From IMG/VR virus record IMGVR_UViG_2563366824_000001: a stretch of DNA of 46,473 nt; one strand, 5' to 3'. Numbering within the stretch: the first letter of the stretch is position 1; each line of letters opens with the position of its first letter. A program made the position numbers and the translations under genes. A model generated the notes under the pieces. That model saw only the letters and a program-made list of their open reading frames with translations, did no database searches and was not told the DNA's origin. The DNA comes from a virus (Duplodnaviria; Heunggongvirae; Uroviricota; Caudoviricetes). Positions 37,220 through 45,269 of this stretch are shown in pieces.

Positions 37220-40200
37220 ATGGGTAAAGGCAGCAGTAAGGGGCATACCCCGCGCGAAGCGAAGGACAACCTGAAGTCCACGCAACTGCTGAGTGTGATC
37301 GATGCCATCAGCGAAGGGCCGGTTGAAGGTCCGGTGGATGGATTAAAAAGCGTGCTGCTGAACAGTACGCCGGTGCTGGACAGTGAGGGGAATACCAATA
37401 TATCCGGCGTCACGGTGGTGTTCCGGGCCGGTGAGCAGGAGCAGACTCCGCCGGAGGGATTTGAATCCTCCGGTTCCGAGACGGTGCTGGGTACGGAAGT
37501 GAAATATGACACGCCGATCACCCGCACCATCACGTCGGCAAACATCGACCGTCTGCGCTTTACCTTCGGTGTGCAGGCACTGGTGGAAACCACCTCAAAG
37601 GGGGACAGGAATCCATCGGAAGTCCGCCTGCTGGTTCAGATACAACGTAACGGTGGCTGGGTGACGGAAAAAGACATCACCATTAAGGGTAAAACCACCT
37701 CGCAGTATCTGGCCTCAGTGGTGGTGGATAACCTGCCGCCGCGCCCGTTTAATATCCGGATGCGCAGGATGACGCCGGACAGCACCACAGACCAGCTGCA
37801 GAACAAAACGCTCTGGTCGTCATACACCGAAATCATCGATGTGAAACAGTGCTACCCGAACACGGCACTGGTCGGCGTGCAGGTGGACTCGGAGCAGTTC
37901 GGCAGCCAGCAGGTGAGCCGTAATTATCATCTGCGCGGGCGTATTCTGCAGGTGCCGTCGAACTATAACCCGCAGACGCGGCAATACAGCGGTATCTGGG
38001 ACGGGACGTTTAAACCGGCATACAGCAACAACATGGCCTGGTGTCTGTGGGATATGCTGACCCATCCGCGCTACGGCATGGGGAAGCGTCTCGGTGCGGC
38101 GGATGTGGACAAATGGGCGCTGTATGTCATCGGCCAGAATTGCGACCAGTCGGTGCCGGATGGCTTTGGTGGCACAGAGCCGCGCATCACCTGTAATGCC
38201 TGGCTGACCACGCAGCGCAAGGCGTGGGATGTGCTCAGTGATTTCTGCTCGGCGATGCGCTGTATGCCGGTATGGAACGGGCAGACGCTGACGTTCGTGC
38301 AGGACCGGCCATCGGATAAGGTGTGGACCTATAACCGCAGTAATGTGGTGATGCCGGATGATGGCGCGCCGTTCCGCTACAGCTTCAGCGCCCTGAAGGA
38401 CCGTCATAATGCCGTTGAGGTGAACTGGATTGACCCGAATAACGGCTGGGAGACGGCGACAGAGCTTGTGGAGGACACGCAGGCCATTGCCCGTTACGGT
38501 CGTAACGTCACGAAGATGGATGCCTTTGGCTGTACCAGCCGGGGGCAGGCACACCGCGCCGGGCTGTGGCTGATTAAAACAGAACTGCTGGAAACGCAGA
38601 CCGTGGATTTCAGCGTCGGCGCAGAAGGGCTTCGCCATGTACCGGGTGATGTTATTGAAATCTGCGATGATGACTATGCGGGGATCAGCATTGGCGGGCG
38701 CGTGCTGGCGGTGAACAGCCAGACCCGGACGCTGACGCTCGACCGTGAAATCACGCTGCCATCCTCCGGTACCACGCTGATAAGCCTGGTTGACGGGCAG
38801 GGGAGTCCGGTCAGCGTGGAGGTTCAGTCCGTCACCGACGGCGTGAAGGTGAAAGTGAGTCGGGTTCCTGACGGCGTTGCCGAATACAGCGTGTGGGGGC
38901 TGAAGCTGCCGACGCTGCGCCAGCGCCTGTTCCGCTGTGTGAGTATCCGTGAGAACGATGACGGCACGTATGCCATCACTGCCGTGCAGCATGTACCGGA
39001 AAAAGAAGCCATCGTGGATAACGGGGCGCACTTTGACGGCGACCAGAGCGGCACGGTGAATGGTGTCACGCCGCCAGCGGTGCAGCACCTGACCGCCGAA
39101 GTCACCGCAGACAGCGGGGAATACCAGGTGCTGGCGCGCTGGGATACGCCGAAGGTGGTGAAGGGCGTGAGCTTTATGCTTCGCCTGACCGTGGCAGCGG
39201 ATGACGGCAGTGAGCGGCTGGTCAGCACGGCCCGGACGACGGAAACCACATACCGCTTCAGGCAGCTGGCTCTGGGAAATTACAGTCTGACAGTCCGGGC
39301 GGTAAATGCGTGGGGGCAGCAGGGCGATCCGGCGTCGGTATCGTTCCGGATTGCCGCACCGGCAGCGCCATCGCGGATTGAGCTGACGCCGGGCTATTTT
39401 CAGATAACTGCCACGCCGCATCTTGCGGTTTATGATCCGACGGTACAGTTTGAGTTCTGGTTCTCGGAAAATCGGATTGCGGATATCAGGCAGGTTGAAA
39501 CCAGCGCGCGTTATCTTGGCACGGCGCTGTACTGGATAGCCGCCAGTATCAATATCAAACCGGGCCATGATTATTATTTTTACGTTCGCAGTGTGAACAC
39601 CGTCGGCAAATCGATATTCGTGGAGGCTGTCGGTCGGGCGAGCGATGATGCGGAAGGTTACCTGGATTTTTTCAAAGGCAAGATAACCGAATCCCATCTC
39701 GGCAAGGAGCTGCTGGAAAAAGTCGAGCTGACGGAGGATAACGCCAGCAGACTGGAGGAGTTTTCGAAAGAGTGGAAGGACGCCAACGATAAGTGGAATG
39801 CCATGTGGGCTGTCAAAATTGAGCAGACCAAAGACGGCAAACATTATGTCGCGGGGCTTGGCCTCAGCATGGAGGACACGGAGGAAGGCAAACTGAGCCA
39901 GTTCCTGGTTGCCGCTAACCGTATCGCATTTATTGACCCGGCAAACGGGAATGAAACGCCGATGTTTGTGGCGCAGGGCAATCAGATATTCATGAACGAA
40001 GTGTTCCTGAAATATCTGACGGCTCCCACCATTACCAGCGGCGGTAATCCTCCGGCATTTTCCCTGACACCGGACGGGCGGCTGACGGCGAAAAATGCCG
40101 ATATCAGCGGTAACGTGAATGCGAACTCCGGGACGCTCAACAACGTCACGATTAACGAGAACTGCCGGGTTCTGGGAAAACTGTCCGCGAACCAGATTGA

Positions 40201-40615
40201 AGGCGATCTCGTTAAAACAGTGGGCAAAGCTTTCCCCCGTGACTCCCGAGCACCGGAGCGGTGGCCATCAGGGACCATTACCGTCAGGGTTTATGACGAT
40301 CAGCCGTTTGACCGGCAAATTGTTATTCCGGCGGTGGCATTCAGTGGCGCTAAGCATGAGAGAGAGCATACTGATATTTACTCCTCATGCCGTCTGATAG
40401 TGCGGAAAAACGGTGCTGAAATTTATAACCGTACCGCGCTGGATAATACGCTGATTTACAGTGGCGTTATTGATATGCCTGCCGGTCACGGTCACATGAC
40501 ACTGGAGTTTTCGGTGTCAGCATGGCTGGTAAATGGCTGGTATCCCACAGCAAGTATCAGCGATTTGCTGGTTGTTGTGATGAAGAAAGCCACTGCAGGC
40601 ATCACGATTAGCTGA
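37220..40615 (+). CDS. J: Central tail fibre / host specificity protein J
   Basis: 1131 aa; SD ggag; position after I and size as lambda J. Confidence 0.9.
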
Positions 40616-40682: not shown

Positions 40683-41282
40683 ATGCGTAAATTATGTGCT
40701 GTTATTCTGTCCGCAGTAGTCTGGCTGGTTGCCGCTGGTACGCCAGCGAGCGCAGCAGAGCATCAGTCCACACTAAGCGCCGGGTATCTTCAGACCCATA
40801 CTGATATGCCAGGCAGTGATGACCTGAAGGGCATTAACGTGAAATACCGTTATGAATTTACGGACACGCTGGGGCTGGTGACGTCATTCAGTTATGCCAA
40901 TGCCAAAGATGAGCAAAGAACGCATTACAGCGATACCCGCTGGCATGAAGATTCAGTGCGTAACCGCTGGTTCAGCATGATGGCGGGGCCATCTGTACGC
41001 GTGAATGAATGGTTCAGTGCTTATGCGATGGCAGGTGTGGCTTACAGCCGTGTTTCGACGTTCTCCGGGGATTATCTCCGCGTAACTGACAACAAGGGGA
41101 AAACGCACGATGTGCTGACCGGAAGTGATGACGATCGCCACAGCAACACGTCTCTGGCGTGGGGAGCTGGCGTGCAGTTTAACCCGACCGAATCCGTGGC
41201 CATTGATATTGCTTATGAAGGCTCCGGCAGTGGCGACTGGCGCACTGACGGTTTCATCGTGGGTGTCGGTTATAAGTTCTGA
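40683..41282 (+). CDS. lom: Lom/Ail/PagC-family outer-membrane beta-barrel protein
   Basis: 199 aa with signal peptide and beta-barrel pattern ending ...GFIVGVGYKF; located after J as in lambda. Confidence 0.85.
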   Translation: MRKLCAVILSAVVWLVAAGTPASAAEHQSTLSAGYLQTHTDMPGSDDLKGINVKYRYEFTDTLGLVTSFSYANAKDEQRTHYSDTRWHEDSVRNRWFSMMAGPSVRVNEWFSAYAMAGVAYSRVSTFSGDYLRVTDNKGKTHDVLTGSDDDRHSNTSLAWGAGVQFNPTESVAIDIAYEGSGSGDWRTDGFIVGVGYKF

Positions 41283-41309
41283 TTAGCCAGGTAACACAGT
41301 GTTATGACA

Positions 41310-41337
41310 GCCCGCCGGTTCAGGCGGGCTTTTTTGT
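41310..41337 (+). terminator. Rho-independent terminator after lom
   Basis: gcccgcc-ggttca-ggcgggc followed by TTTTTT. Confidence 0.65.
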
Positions 41338-41346
41338 GGAGTGGAT

Positions 41347-43746
41347 ATGGCAGCAGTAAAAATCTCAGGTGTGCTGAAAGATGGTGCGGGAAAACCAATA
41401 CAGAACTGCACTATTCAACTGAAGGCAAAGCGTAACAGCACCACGGTACTGGTGAACACGGTGGCTTCTGAAAATCCGGATGAAGCCGGACGTTACAGCA
41501 TGGATGTTGAGTATGGCCAGTACAGCGTCACCCTGCTGGTTGAAGGTTTTCCGCCTTCACATGCCGGGACCATCACCGTGTATGAAGATTCTAAGCCGGG
41601 GACGCTGAATGATTTTCTCGGTGCCATGACGGAAGATGATGTCATGCCGGAGGCATTGCGTCGTTTTGAGGAAATGGTGGAAGAAGCGGCACGCAACGCT
41701 GAAGCCGCCTCTCAGAGCGCAGCGGCGGCAAAGAAATCCGAAACTGCAGCGGCATCATCGAAGAACGCGGCGAAAACCTCAGAAACGAATGCAGCTAATA
41801 GTGCACAGGCGGCAGCGACCTCAAAGACTGCATCGGCAAACTCCGCGACAGCAGCCAAAAAATCAGAAACCAACGCGAAAAATAGCGAGACAGCCGCAAA
41901 GACGAGCGAAACCAACGCAAAGTCCAGCCAGACGGCAGCGAAAACCAGCGAAACGAATGCCAAAGCCAGTGAAACTGCGGCAAAAAACAGCCAGGTTGCA
42001 GCAGCCCAAAGCGAGAGCGCGGCAGCCGGTTCTGCGACTTCAGCAGCTGGATCAGCAACTGCTGCGGCTAACAGCCAGAAAGCTGCGAAGACGAGTGAAA
42101 CTAACGCAAAGTCCAGCCAGACGGCAGCGAAGACCAGCGAAACGAATGCCAAAGCCAGCGAAACTGCGGCGAAAAACAGTCAGGATGCAGCAGCCCAAAG
42201 CGAGAGTGCTGCAGCTGGTTCTGCAAGCGCGGCGGCTGCTTCTGCCACTGCATCAGCCAACAGTCAAAAAGCAGCAAAAACCAGTGAAACCAATGCAAAG
42301 ACAAGCGAGACTGCAGCGGCGAACTCGGCGAAAGCATCGGCAGCAAGCCAGACAGCAGCTAAAGCAAGTGAAGACGCAGCCAGAGAGTATGCAAGTCAGG
42401 CAGCAGAGCCGTATAAATATGTCTTACAGCCACTGCCTGATGTGTGGATACCGTTTAATGATTCACTGGATATGATTACGGGCTTTTCGCCGTCATATAA
42501 AAAAATTGTTATTGGTGATGATGAAATAACGATGCCTGGCGACAAGGTTGTTAAGTTTAAACGCGCATCAACTGCCACATATATCAATAAATCAGGCGTA
42601 TTTAGTGTTGCTAAAATTGATGAGCCACGATTTGAAAAAGAAGGTTTATTGATTGAAGGACAGCGCACTAACTATTTTGTTAAATCCAATACTCCCGCTG
42701 AATGGACGAGTACCAGCAATATCGATAAAACTAATAATGGTGTTGATGAATTTGGTTTTTCATATGCCAAAATGCGAACAAAAGATAATATGACAGGACA
42801 ATCATCTGCACTTAGTCTGCATACATGCAGTGCATCCCGGGGGATTGATGTTAGTGGCGATAATAAGTATTGCACTGTTTCATGCAGGGTTAAAGCTCCT
42901 GATGGTCTTCGTTGTCGTTTGCGTTTTGAAAAATACGATGGGTCGGTTTATACATTTTTAGGAGATGCTTATTTAACTTTCGGAACTCTGATAATAGAAA
43001 AAACTGGCGGAGCAGCCAATAGAATAGCAGCTACTGCAACTAAAGATCCGGTTACAGGGTGGATTTTCTATGAGGCAACTATAGAAGCTGTTGAAGGTGA
43101 AACCTTAATTGGCGCAATGATTCAGTATGCGCCGAAAAAAGGTGGTATAACTGAAGCGGGAGATTATATTTACCTTGCAACACCACAATTTGAAAACGGC
43201 GGATGTGCTTCATCTTTTGTTATTACGACAACTGCACCCGCAACCCGCTCCAGTGATATGGTGACGATCCCAACTGAAAATAATATCTATAATAGACCGC
43301 TTACGTGTCTTGTCGAGGTTAATAGAAATTGGGGCGATATTCCTCCTAATGTAGCACCGCGTATTTTTGATTTTTCTGGTGTGCCACCTATTGAGTCAAT
43401 TACATACGCTTTTAACACAACTGAGAAATATTACGGTCAGCTTTATATGCAAACTTATAAAGCGTCGACAAGTACTTACGTTTCTAGTGTGTTTGCTGGT
43501 CGAACTGATGTTCGAAAATTCATTGGTGGTTTTAATATTTATTCTGATGGTACTAAACGAGTAGTTTCTAACGGTGAGGCTACTAAAACTATGAAAACGG
43601 AGTGGACGGGCGTAAAAACACGGACCTTTATTCGAATTGGAGGTCAAGCCACATCGGGAACTCGTCATCTATTCGGCCATTTGAGAAATCTTCGTCTCTG
43701 GCATAAAGAATTAACTGATGCGCAAATGGGGGAGAGTATTAAATGA
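41347..43746 (+). CDS. stf: Side tail fibre protein Stf with Ala/Thr/Ser-rich repeat region and a divergent C-terminal domain
   Basis: N-terminus AVKISGVLKDGAGKPIQNCTIQLKAKRNSTTVLVNTVASENPDEAGRYSMDVEYGQYSV matches lambda Stf; C-terminus ends ...LRNLRLWHKELTDAQM (LamG/ConA-like signature); AT-rich 3' half. Confidence 0.85.
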   Translation: MAAVKISGVLKDGAGKPIQNCTIQLKAKRNSTTVLVNTVASENPDEAGRYSMDVEYGQYSVTLLVEGFPPSHAGTITVYEDSKPGTLNDFLGAMTEDDVMPEALRRFEEMVEEAARNAEAASQSAAAAKKSETAAASSKNAAKTSETNAANSAQAAATSKTASANSATAAKKSETNAKNSETAAKTSETNAKSSQTAAKTSETNAKASETAAKNSQVAAAQSESAAAGSATSAAGSATAAANSQKAAKTSETNAKSSQTAAKTSETNAKASETAAKNSQDAAAQSESAAAGSASAAAASATASANSQKAAKTSETNAKTSETAAANSAKASAASQTAAKASEDAAREYASQAAEPYKYVLQPLPDVWIPFNDSLDMITGFSPSYKKIVIGDDEITMPGDKVVKFKRASTATYINKSGVFSVAKIDEPRFEKEGLLIEGQRTNYFVKSNTPAEWTSTSNIDKTNNGVDEFGFSYAKMRTKDNMTGQSSALSLHTCSASRGIDVSGDNKYCTVSCRVKAPDGLRCRLRFEKYDGSVYTFLGDAYLTFGTLIIEKTGGAANRIAATATKDPVTGWIFYEATIEAVEGETLIGAMIQYAPKKGGITEAGDYIYLATPQFENGGCASSFVITTTAPATRSSDMVTIPTENNIYNRPLTCLVEVNRNWGDIPPNVAPRIFDFSGVPPIESITYAFNTTEKYYGQLYMQTYKASTSTYVSSVFAGRTDVRKFIGGFNIYSDGTKRVVSNGEATKTMKTEWTGVKTRTFIRIGGQATSGTRHLFGHLRNLRLWHKELTDAQMGESIK
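41893..42221. repeat. Two roughly 144-bp direct repeat copies (about 185-bp period) inside stf, over a background of shorter 33-bp-period repeats
   Basis: AAKTSETNAKSSQTAAKTSETNAKASETAAKNSQ.AAAQSESAAAGSA is encoded twice (about 41893..42036 and 42078..42221) with near-identical DNA. Confidence 0.7.
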
Positions 43747-44024
43747 AAGATTTAACACTCAAATTTGCAGACAGGGTCGACTTTTCGGCCTTTATGGAGA
43801 GCATTGGCTATTATGATGACGAGTCGATGCAGGATGATATTCTTATTGACGTGATAGGTAATGTGTACAAAGAAACCGGAGAACTTACTGAAGATGGCGA
43901 GCCGGTATGTGTTAAGGAGGACGGATATTTTGTAAATGTGCGCATCATTAATGATTCGCAAATATCGTCATTATTCGATGAACACGCGGTTGCTGTTGAG
44001 CATCAACTCCGTAGCTGGATGTGA
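43743..44024 (+). CDS. Hypothetical protein downstream of stf (possible fibre-associated chaperone/adaptor)
   Basis: 93-aa acidic ORF, ATGA-coupled to the stf stop; AT-rich. Confidence 0.5.
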   Translation: MKDLTLKFADRVDFSAFMESIGYYDDESMQDDILIDVIGNVYKETGELTEDGEPVCVKEDGYFVNVRIINDSQISSLFDEHAVAVEHQLRSWM

Positions 44025-44033
44025 GGAAGAAAA

Positions 44034-44738
44034 ATGGCTACATCGACAGTAATTCCTGATGACATCAAAACGCTAAAGGGAGATGTCAGTAAGGCAAAGG
44101 AAGATATTTCCTCAATTAACGTAAAAGTATCAACGCTTCAGACTGATATGGACAGTGCAAAGCAGGATATCAGTACCAGATACACAAAAACAGAAGTGGA
44201 TAATAAGCTGAAAAACAAAGTGGAAGTGAACGATCTGGAAAGTGGTCGTTATGGCGGAGATTTTTACCCGCTGACTGGCCGTGAAGCGTTTTATTTATGG
44301 GGATTGGGCACAACTACAGCGGCGGCAAATCTTTATCTTAATCCTGACCCTGCAATTTCGTCTGTGCTGCGGTCAACATCGTCTATCCGCTATAAACATT
44401 CAGTAGAGACGATAGATTCAGAGCACGCCGATCTCATTTTCAGGATGCGCCCTGTGTGGTACAGGTCGCAATGCGAAAATGACAGGCGTGACTGGGGATT
44501 CTATGGATTGATTGCCGAGGAAGTAGGAGAAATTGCCCCTCAGTTTGTTCACTGGCGACCAGCCAACGAAGATGATGCACCGGAAACCATTTCCAGCAAT
44601 GGCCTTGTTGCCGAAGGTGTAATGTACGAACGTCTGGTTGTTCCACTGATTCACCATATCCAGAAACTGACTGAAAGAGTTGATGAACTTGAGTCAGAAT
44701 TGAAGTTGTTATCAACTTCCCAAAGCGATATCGGATAA
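44034..44738 (+). CDS. Small coiled-coil fibre-like protein with C-terminal S74-type intramolecular chaperone domain
   Basis: SD gagga; N-terminal heptad-repeat region; C-terminal STSSIRYKHSVETIDS ... RPVWYRS ... GFYGLIAEEVGEIAPQFV ... ERLVVPLIHHIQKLTERVDELESEL fits the S74 pattern. Confidence 0.55.
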   Translation: MATSTVIPDDIKTLKGDVSKAKEDISSINVKVSTLQTDMDSAKQDISTRYTKTEVDNKLKNKVEVNDLESGRYGGDFYPLTGREAFYLWGLGTTTAAANLYLNPDPAISSVLRSTSSIRYKHSVETIDSEHADLIFRMRPVWYRSQCENDRRDWGFYGLIAEEVGEIAPQFVHWRPANEDDAPETISSNGLVAEGVMYERLVVPLIHHIQKLTERVDELESELKLLSTSQSDIG

Positions 44739-44748
44739 AGGAGGAGTA

Positions 44749-45042
44749 ATGGATATAACACCTTTTCTTCATGCGCTTTGTGCTGTGGCTGCGCAGGTAA
44801 TGATTGGTCTTTTTACCGGAAACTGGGTTTACGGGGCGATAGCCGGTTGTACGTTCTTCATTGCGCGTGAACACACCCAGGCAGAATATCGCTGGATTGA
44901 AATGTTCGGGCATGGCAAGCGGATTAACATGCCGTGGTGGGGCGGTTTTGATCCGCGTGTTTGGGATGTGGCAAGCCTGATAGATTTTGCTGTGCCGGTG
45001 GTGGCGTGTCTGCTGGTCTGGCTGTTGGTTAATCGTGGGTGA
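44749..45042 (+). CDS. Small inner-membrane protein with two predicted TM helices
   Basis: SD aaggagg; hydrophobic helices LHALCAVAAQVMIGLFTGNWVYGAIAGCTFFIA and VASLIDFAVPVVACLLVWLLV. Confidence 0.6.
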   Translation: MDITPFLHALCAVAAQVMIGLFTGNWVYGAIAGCTFFIAREHTQAEYRWIEMFGHGKRINMPWWGGFDPRVWDVASLIDFAVPVVACLLVWLLVNRG

Positions 45043-45052
45043 AAAAAGGTGA

Positions 45053-45172
45053 GCTGTATATGCAACGGAGGAAGAAACCCCGTTGCTGGAAGCCTGGAAA
45101 AAGTATCGGGTGTTGCTGAACCGTGTTGATACGTCAACTGCACAGGATATTGAATGGCCAGCACTGCCGTAG
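45053..45172 (+). pseudogene. tfa: 3'-terminal remnant (39 codons) of a tail fibre assembly gene tfa
   Basis: Open frame encodes [39 protein letters not shown], matching the conserved Tfa C-terminus (...YR..L..VDTSTAPDIEWP..P, from memory); no in-frame start, and an upstream TGA at 45050. Confidence 0.55.
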
Positions 45173-45269
45173 GGTAAAACATATAAATTCTATAATTAGA
45201 TGTATCTTTCCATTTACGGCAAGGAAGGGGGCTTGGAAGACGTAAAGCATCTCACACCGAGATTATTTT

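Follow-up and report, generated by a model that had tools for sequence, protein, structure and literature searches.

A probable widespread side-tail-fibre cassette in a lambda-like prophage and its predicted self-chaperoned short fibre protein

How does a lambda-like prophage complete its side tail fibre when nearly all of the assembly gene tfa is gone and three small genes of no obvious relation to it occupy the interval? This question is raised by a stretch of 46,473 nucleotides, the IMG/VR virus record IMGVR_UViG_2563366824_000001, which is referred to as a whole as the window. The window is a lambda-like prophage; in E. coli F344 (NZ_OY754421), the chromosome matches its positions 42400-45260 with 100% identity and carries the prophage beside prfC. 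Behind the side tail fibre gene stf lie three tightly packed open reading frames (ORFs) for proteins of 93, 234 and 97 amino acids, termed orf93, orf234 and orf97, followed by the 3' remnant of tfa and by a gene for a Pin/resolvase-like recombinase (Table 1), much as a first-pass annotation made from the letters of the DNA had described it. Our comparison indicates that the locus, on balance, probably forms the distal part of the prophage's late operon and carries a widespread alternative side-tail-fibre cassette. The swap is real but ordinary, with E. coli prophages and virulent T1-like phages numbering in the thousands that carry such a cassette, and the locus is a very common member of the classical tail-fibre mosaicism. 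As regards the 234-aa protein, the comparative data suggest that it is most likely an optional, self-chaperoned short second fibre and not a substitute for Tfa.

The boundaries of the cassette are well defined. In windows of 300 nt, the G+C content (GC) amounts to 0.54-0.56 over 41600-42400 and to 0.35-0.43 from 42400 to about 44200, an overall step from about 0.55 to about 0.38 at the very position (about 42400) where an AT-rich replacement had been proposed to begin. DNA homology to the T1-like phage PeterMerian starts at 42385, exactly at this break, and the unit held in common with T1-like phages extends to about 44738, with orf97 and the scar of tfa added on the lambdoid side. From 42385 onward, the sequence is thus common to unrelated, virulent T1-like phages, which speaks for the horizontal origin that had been suggested. 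DNA homology to lambda and its hybrid 2H10, on the other hand, ends at 41699, after the first ~120 codons of stf, and restarts at 45061 within the 3' end of tfa; to the right of this point, the DNA is 98% identical to the tfa-pin region of 2H10 up to the end of the window. With this gap in homology from 41699 to 45061 and no intact tfa in the window, the claim that a cassette overwrote the 3' end of stf together with nearly all of tfa holds.

The surviving piece of tfa had been put at 39 codons from 45053; a C-terminal remnant is indeed present, but it begins at 45062 and comprises 36 codons and the stop. It matches positions 95-130 of 131 of the Pfam family Caudo_TAP (PF02413) with an E-value of 4.8e-16 and shows 94% identity to residues 156-191 of Tfa from phage 2H10 in tblastn, and neither an intact tfa nor any other Tfa-like sequence was detected elsewhere in the window. 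This remnant is the scar of the replaced assembly gene and at the same time the right-hand homology anchor of the module. It follows directly 3' of orf97 in 32 of the 47 loci for which enough downstream DNA was available. As the scar is inherited with the module, the replacement must be old and is not an event of this prophage. We propose that the ancestral 3' end of stf, together with tfa, gave way to the cassette through recombination a long time ago and that the cassette would now move as a unit between lambdoid phages, with the stf shaft and junction serving as the left arm and the tfa scar and pin region as the right arm. In PhiR49_1 (our locus L001, 8384-12215), 2G7b (L090, 4988-8819) and ev243 (L091, 3987-7291), the cassette is followed by a gene for a ybcY-like methyltransferase, tfa fragments, a hydrolase gene and ompT, and not by pin; this DLP12-like right arm places the module in at least two right-hand contexts.

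The distribution of the module gives no support to a special or recent event, as which it had initially appeared. Junctions, three genes and tfa scar are all found again in dozens of IMG/VR prophage loci, and at least 80% of 42400-45260 is carried by 179 of 5426 complete E. coli genomes. About 1000 contigs encode a protein identical to orf234, and about 1000 one identical to orf97; the 90% cluster of orf234 has 2928 members, so that a stand-alone S74 mini-protein, regarded as unusual in the first-pass annotation, is not rare in this setting. The four-gene layout is also present in the phage genomes PhiR49_1 (98.8% DNA identity), IdasGreatGrand, HannyBb, Tritos, PhiR63_1 and 2G7b; a literature search on the phage names HannyBb, IdasGreatGrand and Tritos yielded unrelated papers only. 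Nor are the three genes unrecognised, since they match phrog_1361, phrog_3299 (at its C-terminal end) and phrog_1443. They are conserved components of known lambdoid fibre loci, a finding which stands beside the lack of an intact tfa elsewhere in the window. In the records examined, the 93-, 234- and 97-aa proteins are labelled hypothetical proteins, the 234-aa protein at most as 'tail fiber domain-containing protein', and they are uncharacterised in the Eligo preprint on lambda Stf engineering, the Bil/SECphi27 preprint, the SH6 proteomics paper and the two BASEL papers.

For a closer comparison of the parts, 80 IMG/VR loci were fetched through orf93 and all parts were mapped, giving 80+ loci overall. 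Across loci, orf93 is conserved at 90-99% and orf97 at 86-100%. The tip of Stf, in contrast to these, falls into allele classes with about 100, 78, 57, 52 and 45-47% identity to that of the window, and the third gene is either of the 234-aa type, of a 346-aa type, or absent. The 346-aa allele has only residues 1-32 in common with the 234-aa type and possesses an S74 domain of its own at residues 227-278. Gene 3 is absent in phage ev243 and in E. coli A13, where the Stf tips are intact ORFs. The A13 locus (L089, 2669-5307) is a prophage remnant by sitABCD that keeps the tip and the 92-aa and 97-aa genes. Each of the three tip classes that are well sampled is found with both gene-3 types, in ratios of 10:8, 8:31 and 16:2. 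Recombination thus separates gene-3 types from tip classes, with linkage still visible.

The S74 domain announced for the 234-aa protein is readily apparent: Pfam Peptidase_S74 (PF13884) covers residues 116-172 with 27.3 bits against a cutoff of 22. Ser116 (codon 44379-44381) and Lys121 (codon 44394-44396) are invariant in 30 homologues, down to 26% identity, and fit the i/i+5 Ser...Lys spacing which, going by endoNF Ser911/Lys916, we take to be the rule for such domains. An AlphaFold2 model of orf234 consists of a long N-terminal helix, a low-confidence stretch at residues 58-115 and a confidently predicted S74 domain, with a predicted local distance difference test score (pLDDT) of ~80-90 over residues 130-230. 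In Foldseek, this model retrieved the ICA domain of MyRF (7DC3, E 1.2e-4) and, following it, the phage intramolecular chaperone (IMC) structures 3GUD and 3GW6, so that the domain as modelled has the ICA/IMC fold. Against BFVD, 123 matches were obtained at E ≤ 1e-3, mostly IMC-bearing fibres and among them the ends of long fibres, including the L-shaped fibre (Ltf) of the T5-like phage DT57C. A search of solved-structure sequences with the orf234 family profile returned nothing at E ≤ 0.1.

Three parts can be told apart in orf234, namely a conserved N-terminal anchor and helix (residues 1-62), a small tip (residues ~66-115) and the S74 chaperone (residues 116-234). The N-terminus reads MATSTVIPDDIKTLK... 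and is conserved as MAT.T.IP.DI..LK in homologues of 221-269 aa from two phage families. S74 domains such as those of endoNF, T5 pb1 and GA-1 gp12 act in cis on the upstream trimeric segment of the same chain and then cleave themselves off at the conserved serine. By analogy, orf234 would be a short trimeric second fibre in which the S74 part would first fold the protein's own trimer and afterwards be released by self-cleavage at Ser116, so that a mature protein of 115 residues would remain. The conserved N-terminus may serve as the docking element and residues ~66-115 as the tip, which would make orf234 an optional and exchangeable second receptor-binding element. We favour this second-fibre reading because the two gene-3 alleles differ in their mature parts, each of which is followed by an S74 domain of its own, and share only the N-terminal ~20-30 residues, because gene 3 pairs with different Stf tips and can be absent, and because the protein is structurally like the ends of long fibres.

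Which fibre would such an element accompany? Residues 5-134 of Stf are the prophage tail fibre N-terminal anchor (PF08400, phage_tail_N, E 2e-68), in line with the lambda-like beginning that had been noticed. The further claim of a lambda-like repeat region is correct in composition only, since the DNA homology stops at 41699. The shaft is helical and rich in Ala, Ser, Thr and Lys, and resembles that of lambda Stf in its Ala/Ser/Thr-rich character. It contains 2.3 copies of a tandem repeat with 83% matches (score 604 in Tandem Repeats Finder), which is also evident from self-offset blast matches. Stf homologues of about 735/736, 785 and 801 aa were observed, and this length variation may reflect the copy number of the repeat. 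While Stf as a whole matches phrog_1419 over its full length, Stf of 2H10 aligns to the window protein at residues 2-369 only, and the C-terminal half of lambda Stf (orf-314) gave no tblastn match within the stf gene of the window.

The receptor-binding end begins with a junction that is invariant among alleles (PLPDVWIPFNDSLDMITGF...), and this junction and a C-terminal strand flank a hypervariable, beta-rich middle; more than 2600 homologous clusters (90% identity) exist for the tip domain. Residues 437-637 match the GTA head spike fiber domain of NCBIfam (NF048003) with 58.1 bits against a cutoff of 36, over positions 1-181 of the 182 of the profile, and a search of solved-structure sequences with the Stf tip gave a weak match to the RcGTA head fibre chain (E 0.057). 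The LamG/ConA-like end of Stf reported in the first-pass annotation stands at the level of the family: Laminin_G_3 (PF13385) matches 10 of 11 alleles of the end domain (best E 1.7e-7). For the C-terminal fragment of the window allele, the match (residues 733-795, profile positions 87-149 only, E 0.0019) stays below the cutoff with 18.8 versus 27.6 bits, and no LamG/ConA match was listed with full-length Stf as the Pfam query. Judged by sequence profiles, the end of Stf is ConA/LamG-like, a statement that we accept at family level only. The AlphaFold2 model of the C-terminal 449 aa was built on an alignment of 19 sequences and was not used for any claim about the fold; neurexin LamG matches to it, at about 9e-3, appeared amid generic beta-sandwich matches. 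Stf would accordingly combine the retained lambda-type anchor and shaft with a beta-sandwich module of ~440 residues from residue ~349-361 onward, made up of the GTA domain and the ConA/LamG-like end. Such a tip would be the kind of domain that binds surface glycans, and it may do so without the need for a Tfa-type chaperone. The related head fibre of RcGTA, which is attached as a single subunit, binds to capsular polysaccharide (PMC7296036); this would fit a glycan-binding Stf tip that folds without a trimer-specific chaperone, which in turn would explain how tfa could be lost. Some IMG/VR loci contain stop codons in the C-terminal half of stf (L018, 4362-5705, and L082, 4658-6001) next to an intact orf93, and in L018 orf234 is intact as well; these are decaying fibres with preserved downstream genes, and the stops in the 3' half of stf are also the reason why L018 could not be aligned with the other Stf tips.

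The small acidic protein orf93 is the constant companion of this tip. Its ATG overlaps the stop codon of stf (ATGA), an arrangement indicative of translational coupling, phrog_1361 covers it over its full length (E 1.2e-44), and it was found in every cassette examined and strictly co-occurs with the Stf tip type. The family is narrow, with 47 representatives at 50% identity among 1.84 billion. Because orf93 is coupled to stf and always accompanies this tip, it is probably a dedicated assembly factor or adaptor of the Stf tip. All three small genes have a Shine-Dalgarno (SD) sequence and are under purifying selection, with pairwise dN/dS values of 0.20-0.45 for orf93, 0.15-0.23 for orf234, the latter including comparisons across the lambda-like/T1-like divide, and 0.22-0.43 for orf97.

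Could orf234 instead act in trans, as an assembly chaperone for the new Stf tip that functionally replaces Tfa, as the first-pass annotation had implied? We consider this the weaker reading and an unlikely one. S74 domains work in cis before they cleave themselves off, and the Ser/Lys pair that this requires is invariant in the orf234 family. The 346-aa allele differs wholly in the part preceding its S74 domain, yet the same Stf tips are found beside it, and ev243 and A13 do without gene 3 although their tip ORFs are intact. In addition, the Stf tip is of the LamG/GTA beta-sandwich type and not an intertwined beta-helix of the kind that IMCs are known to fold. What speaks for a chaperone in trans is the position of orf234 downstream of the fibre gene, where tfa normally sits, together with the loss of tfa, the naming of its domain as 'chaperone of endosialidase', and a precedent in annotation, as the T1-like homologue in PeterMerian was labelled 'putative lateral tail fiber chaperone' by the BASEL authors. 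If orf234 were the degenerating 3' end of a formerly long fibre gene, and hence a pseudogene comparable to the tfa scar, this would account for its alignment to positions 1147-1384 of 1385 of phrog_3299 only and for the predominance of long fibres among its structural neighbours. However, a pseudogene is hardly expected to show the low dN/dS of orf234 even across the lambda-like/T1-like divide, to have an SD sequence and an ATG of its own 10 nt behind orf93, or to keep its length and its N-terminal motif in two phage families. On these grounds the possibility was rejected, and we regard it as very improbable.

Two further explanations concern the cassette as a whole. That this prophage alone suffered a recent, lineage-specific overwrite, with the three genes as novel cargo, is suggested at first sight by the sharp GC break and the truncated tfa, but it is highly unlikely given identical architecture and junctions in many loci with 86-100% protein identity, the scar right behind orf97 in most of the loci that could be assessed, the presence of the module in isolated phages of different sources, and genes that are catalogued in PHROGs and encode proteins found on ~1000 contigs. 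The varied Stf alleles and right-hand flanks also argue against the loci representing a single clonal prophage. Even less probable, to a degree that it can practically be set aside, is a host-range switch controlled by Pin, in which the small genes would be alternative fibre ends as in the invertible segments G of Mu, C of P1 and P of e14. An intact Pin-type invertase does lie directly downstream, but a scan with a degenerate hix/gix consensus, allowing up to 3 mismatches, revealed no crossover site of the hix/gix/pix type, and no flanking inverted repeats > 24 nt that bracket the cassette genes were found. Furthermore, all cassette genes are oriented like stf and have their own starts, and there is neither an oppositely oriented fibre 3' end nor an oppositely oriented tfa copy. 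An invertible segment at the cassette was therefore rejected after the crossover-site and inverted-repeat scans, and Pin appears to be an orphan invertase here.

Several points weigh against the second-fibre reading of orf234 and the picture of the Stf tip that goes with it. The assortment of gene 3 with tip classes is linked (16:2 versus 8:31), so that independence is incomplete. Stf is dispensable for plaque formation by lambda, and the viability of phages without tfa or gene 3 therefore says little about fibre assembly. Laminin_G_3 remains below threshold for the window allele itself, the AlphaFold2 model of the Stf tip is poor (mean pLDDT 49.6), and a Foldseek search of the PDB with it produced no match at E ≤ 0.001. 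The chaperone label given to the PeterMerian homologue also counts on this side. Finally, no experiment was found in the searched literature, and the incorporation of orf234 into the virion, its self-cleavage, its docking site and any receptor are inferred. Weighing all this, we put forward rather tentatively, as a possibility to which we would give somewhat less than an even chance, that lambdoid and T1-like siphophages bearing the cassette build a two-part, Tfa-independent side fibre, in which the 93-aa protein would help to assemble a lectin-like tip, and a separately encoded, self-chaperoned mini-fibre (234- or 346-aa type) would dock by its conserved N-terminal ~20 residues and provide an exchangeable second receptor specificity.

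The features of the locus are compiled in Table 1.

Table 1. Coordinates of genes and other features at the side-tail-fibre locus of the window
Feature	Position	Strand	Remarks and basis
J	37220-40615		Upstream of lom and stf; ORF
lom	40683-41282		Between J and stf; ORF
stf, side tail fibre gene	41341-43746	+	801 aa from GTG; PF08400 phage_tail_N; phrog_1419 full length
189-nt (63-aa) tandem repeat in Stf shaft	41884-42318	+	Tandem Repeats Finder
Cassette portion of stf (aa ~349-801)	42385-43746	+	GC break; PeterMerian DNA homology
GTA head-spike-fibre domain, Stf aa 437-637	42649-43251	+	NF048003
Laminin_G_3-like end, Stf aa 733-795	43537-43725	+	Laminin_G_3 profile, below cutoff for window allele
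orf93, small acidic protein	43743-44024	+	ORF; phrog_1361
orf234, predicted short fibre protein with S74 domain	44034-44738	+	ORF; Pfam PF13884
orf97, small membrane protein	44749-45042	+	ORF; phrog_1443; hydropathy
tfa 3' remnant, 36 codons + stop, no start codon	45062-45172	+	Caudo_TAP; RefSeq pseudogene
pin-type serine DNA invertase, 196 aa	45270-45860	-	Resolvase + HTH_7; phrog_125

The start of stf in Table 1 is that of the mechanical ORF, whereas the gene in RefSeq begins two codons later with ATG 41347 and encodes 799 aa. In the interval from lom to the start of stf, a strong terminator-like hairpin of 8 pairs, 7 of which are GC, with a T-run behind it was noted at 41309-41330; expression of stf and the cassette would thus need read-through or antitermination. 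No promoter-like or terminator-like sites above background were found between stf and the three small genes. The last gene of the cassette, orf97, is specific to lambdoid phages and absent from T1-like loci. Its classification as a membrane protein is consistent with at least two hydrophobic segments at residues ~3-27 and ~71-97 in the hydropathy analysis; it is preceded by the SD sequence AAGGAGG and covered over its full length by phrog_1443. Matches to the orf97 segment alone were seen in three genomes sampled. Distant relatives, with 40-50% identity over about half the protein, are encoded in Aeromonas jumbo phages, a 156-kb Salmonella phage and some 47-kb siphophages, so this family of small membrane proteins is wider than the fibre cassette. 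The recombinase gene, whose Resolvase and HTH_7 domains agree with its initial designation, is intact, and the Pin protein is 100% identical across many loci. PADLOC defence models had no match among orf93, orf234, orf97 and pin, and the idea that the small genes are anti-phage defence genes, a moron at the fibre locus, was rejected on this basis.

The main value of the analysis is one of correction: a locus of exotic appearance ranks among the most frequent side-fibre alleles in E. coli prophages, and it exemplifies the trading of fibre cassettes by temperate and virulent phages that has been known for a long time. The 93-, 234- and 97-aa proteins are abundant yet uncharacterised, and the possibility of a plug-in mini-fibre lends them modest interest. 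If true, the two-part fibre would amount to the branched fibres of T5-like phages reduced to a minimal 'plug-in' version. In practical terms, the interest is modest yet real, given clean and conserved recombination arms, no requirement for Tfa, and tip and gene-3 alleles that recombine naturally; should the mini-fibre reading be correct, the cassette would offer a compact modular scaffold for retargeting lambda-based particles.

In comparison with the stf-tfa(-pin) loci of lambda, Rac and Qin, the window locus likewise comes after J and lom and shares the anchor domain, an Ala/Ser/Thr-rich shaft and, from 45061, the tfa 3' end and pin region, but the receptor-binding end of Stf is unrelated, Tfa is cut to 36 codons and three other genes fill the interval. 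The RcGTA head spike fibre Rcc01080 (NF048003; PDB 6TB9) belongs to a domain family that is detected in Stf above cutoff, with the weak match to the PDB chain mentioned above; it is a capsid spike there, whereas the domain stands at the end of a tail fibre shaft here. As the globular part of Rcc01080 is unresolved in the solved structure (PMC7296036), its likeness to Stf is one of sequence alone. Fibres with a C-terminal S74/ICA domain, i.e., the K1F/NF endosialidase, T5 pb1, GA-1 gp12 and DT57C LtfA/LtfB, resemble orf234 in the Ser-x4-Lys motif, the ICA fold, the C-terminal helix and the position at the fibre end. They differ in that the predicted mature part of orf234 has ~115 residues instead of hundreds to more than 1000. 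In DT57C, a single virion fibre is reportedly built of two separately encoded receptor-binding protein chains that each possess an IMC (Golomidova et al. 2016). For siphoviruses, lateral fibres made of several proteins, which the BASEL text notes, and T5-like tips ending in an IMC have been described, and that unrelated temperate and virulent coliphages exchange side or lateral fibre cassettes is a classical finding (Montag 1989; Haggard-Ljungquist 1992; Sandmeier 1994, as cited in PMC3945230). Another close counterpart is the lateral fibre locus of the Drexlerviridae (PeterMerian Bas05, bas05_0031/0030/0029; SLUR29 gp50-52; ~40 others), where three homologous genes stand in identical order and orientation. 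The C-terminal ~440 residues of the PeterMerian fibre are 45% identical to the window Stf, with a near-identical junction, and the 92-aa and 231-aa S74 proteins of the family show 43-50% (43% in PeterMerian) and 56-59% identity to orf93 and orf234, respectively. These phages are virulent, their fibre has a T1-type anchor and not the PF08400 anchor of lambda, and orf97, the tfa scar and the invertase are features of the lambdoid locus that they do not share.

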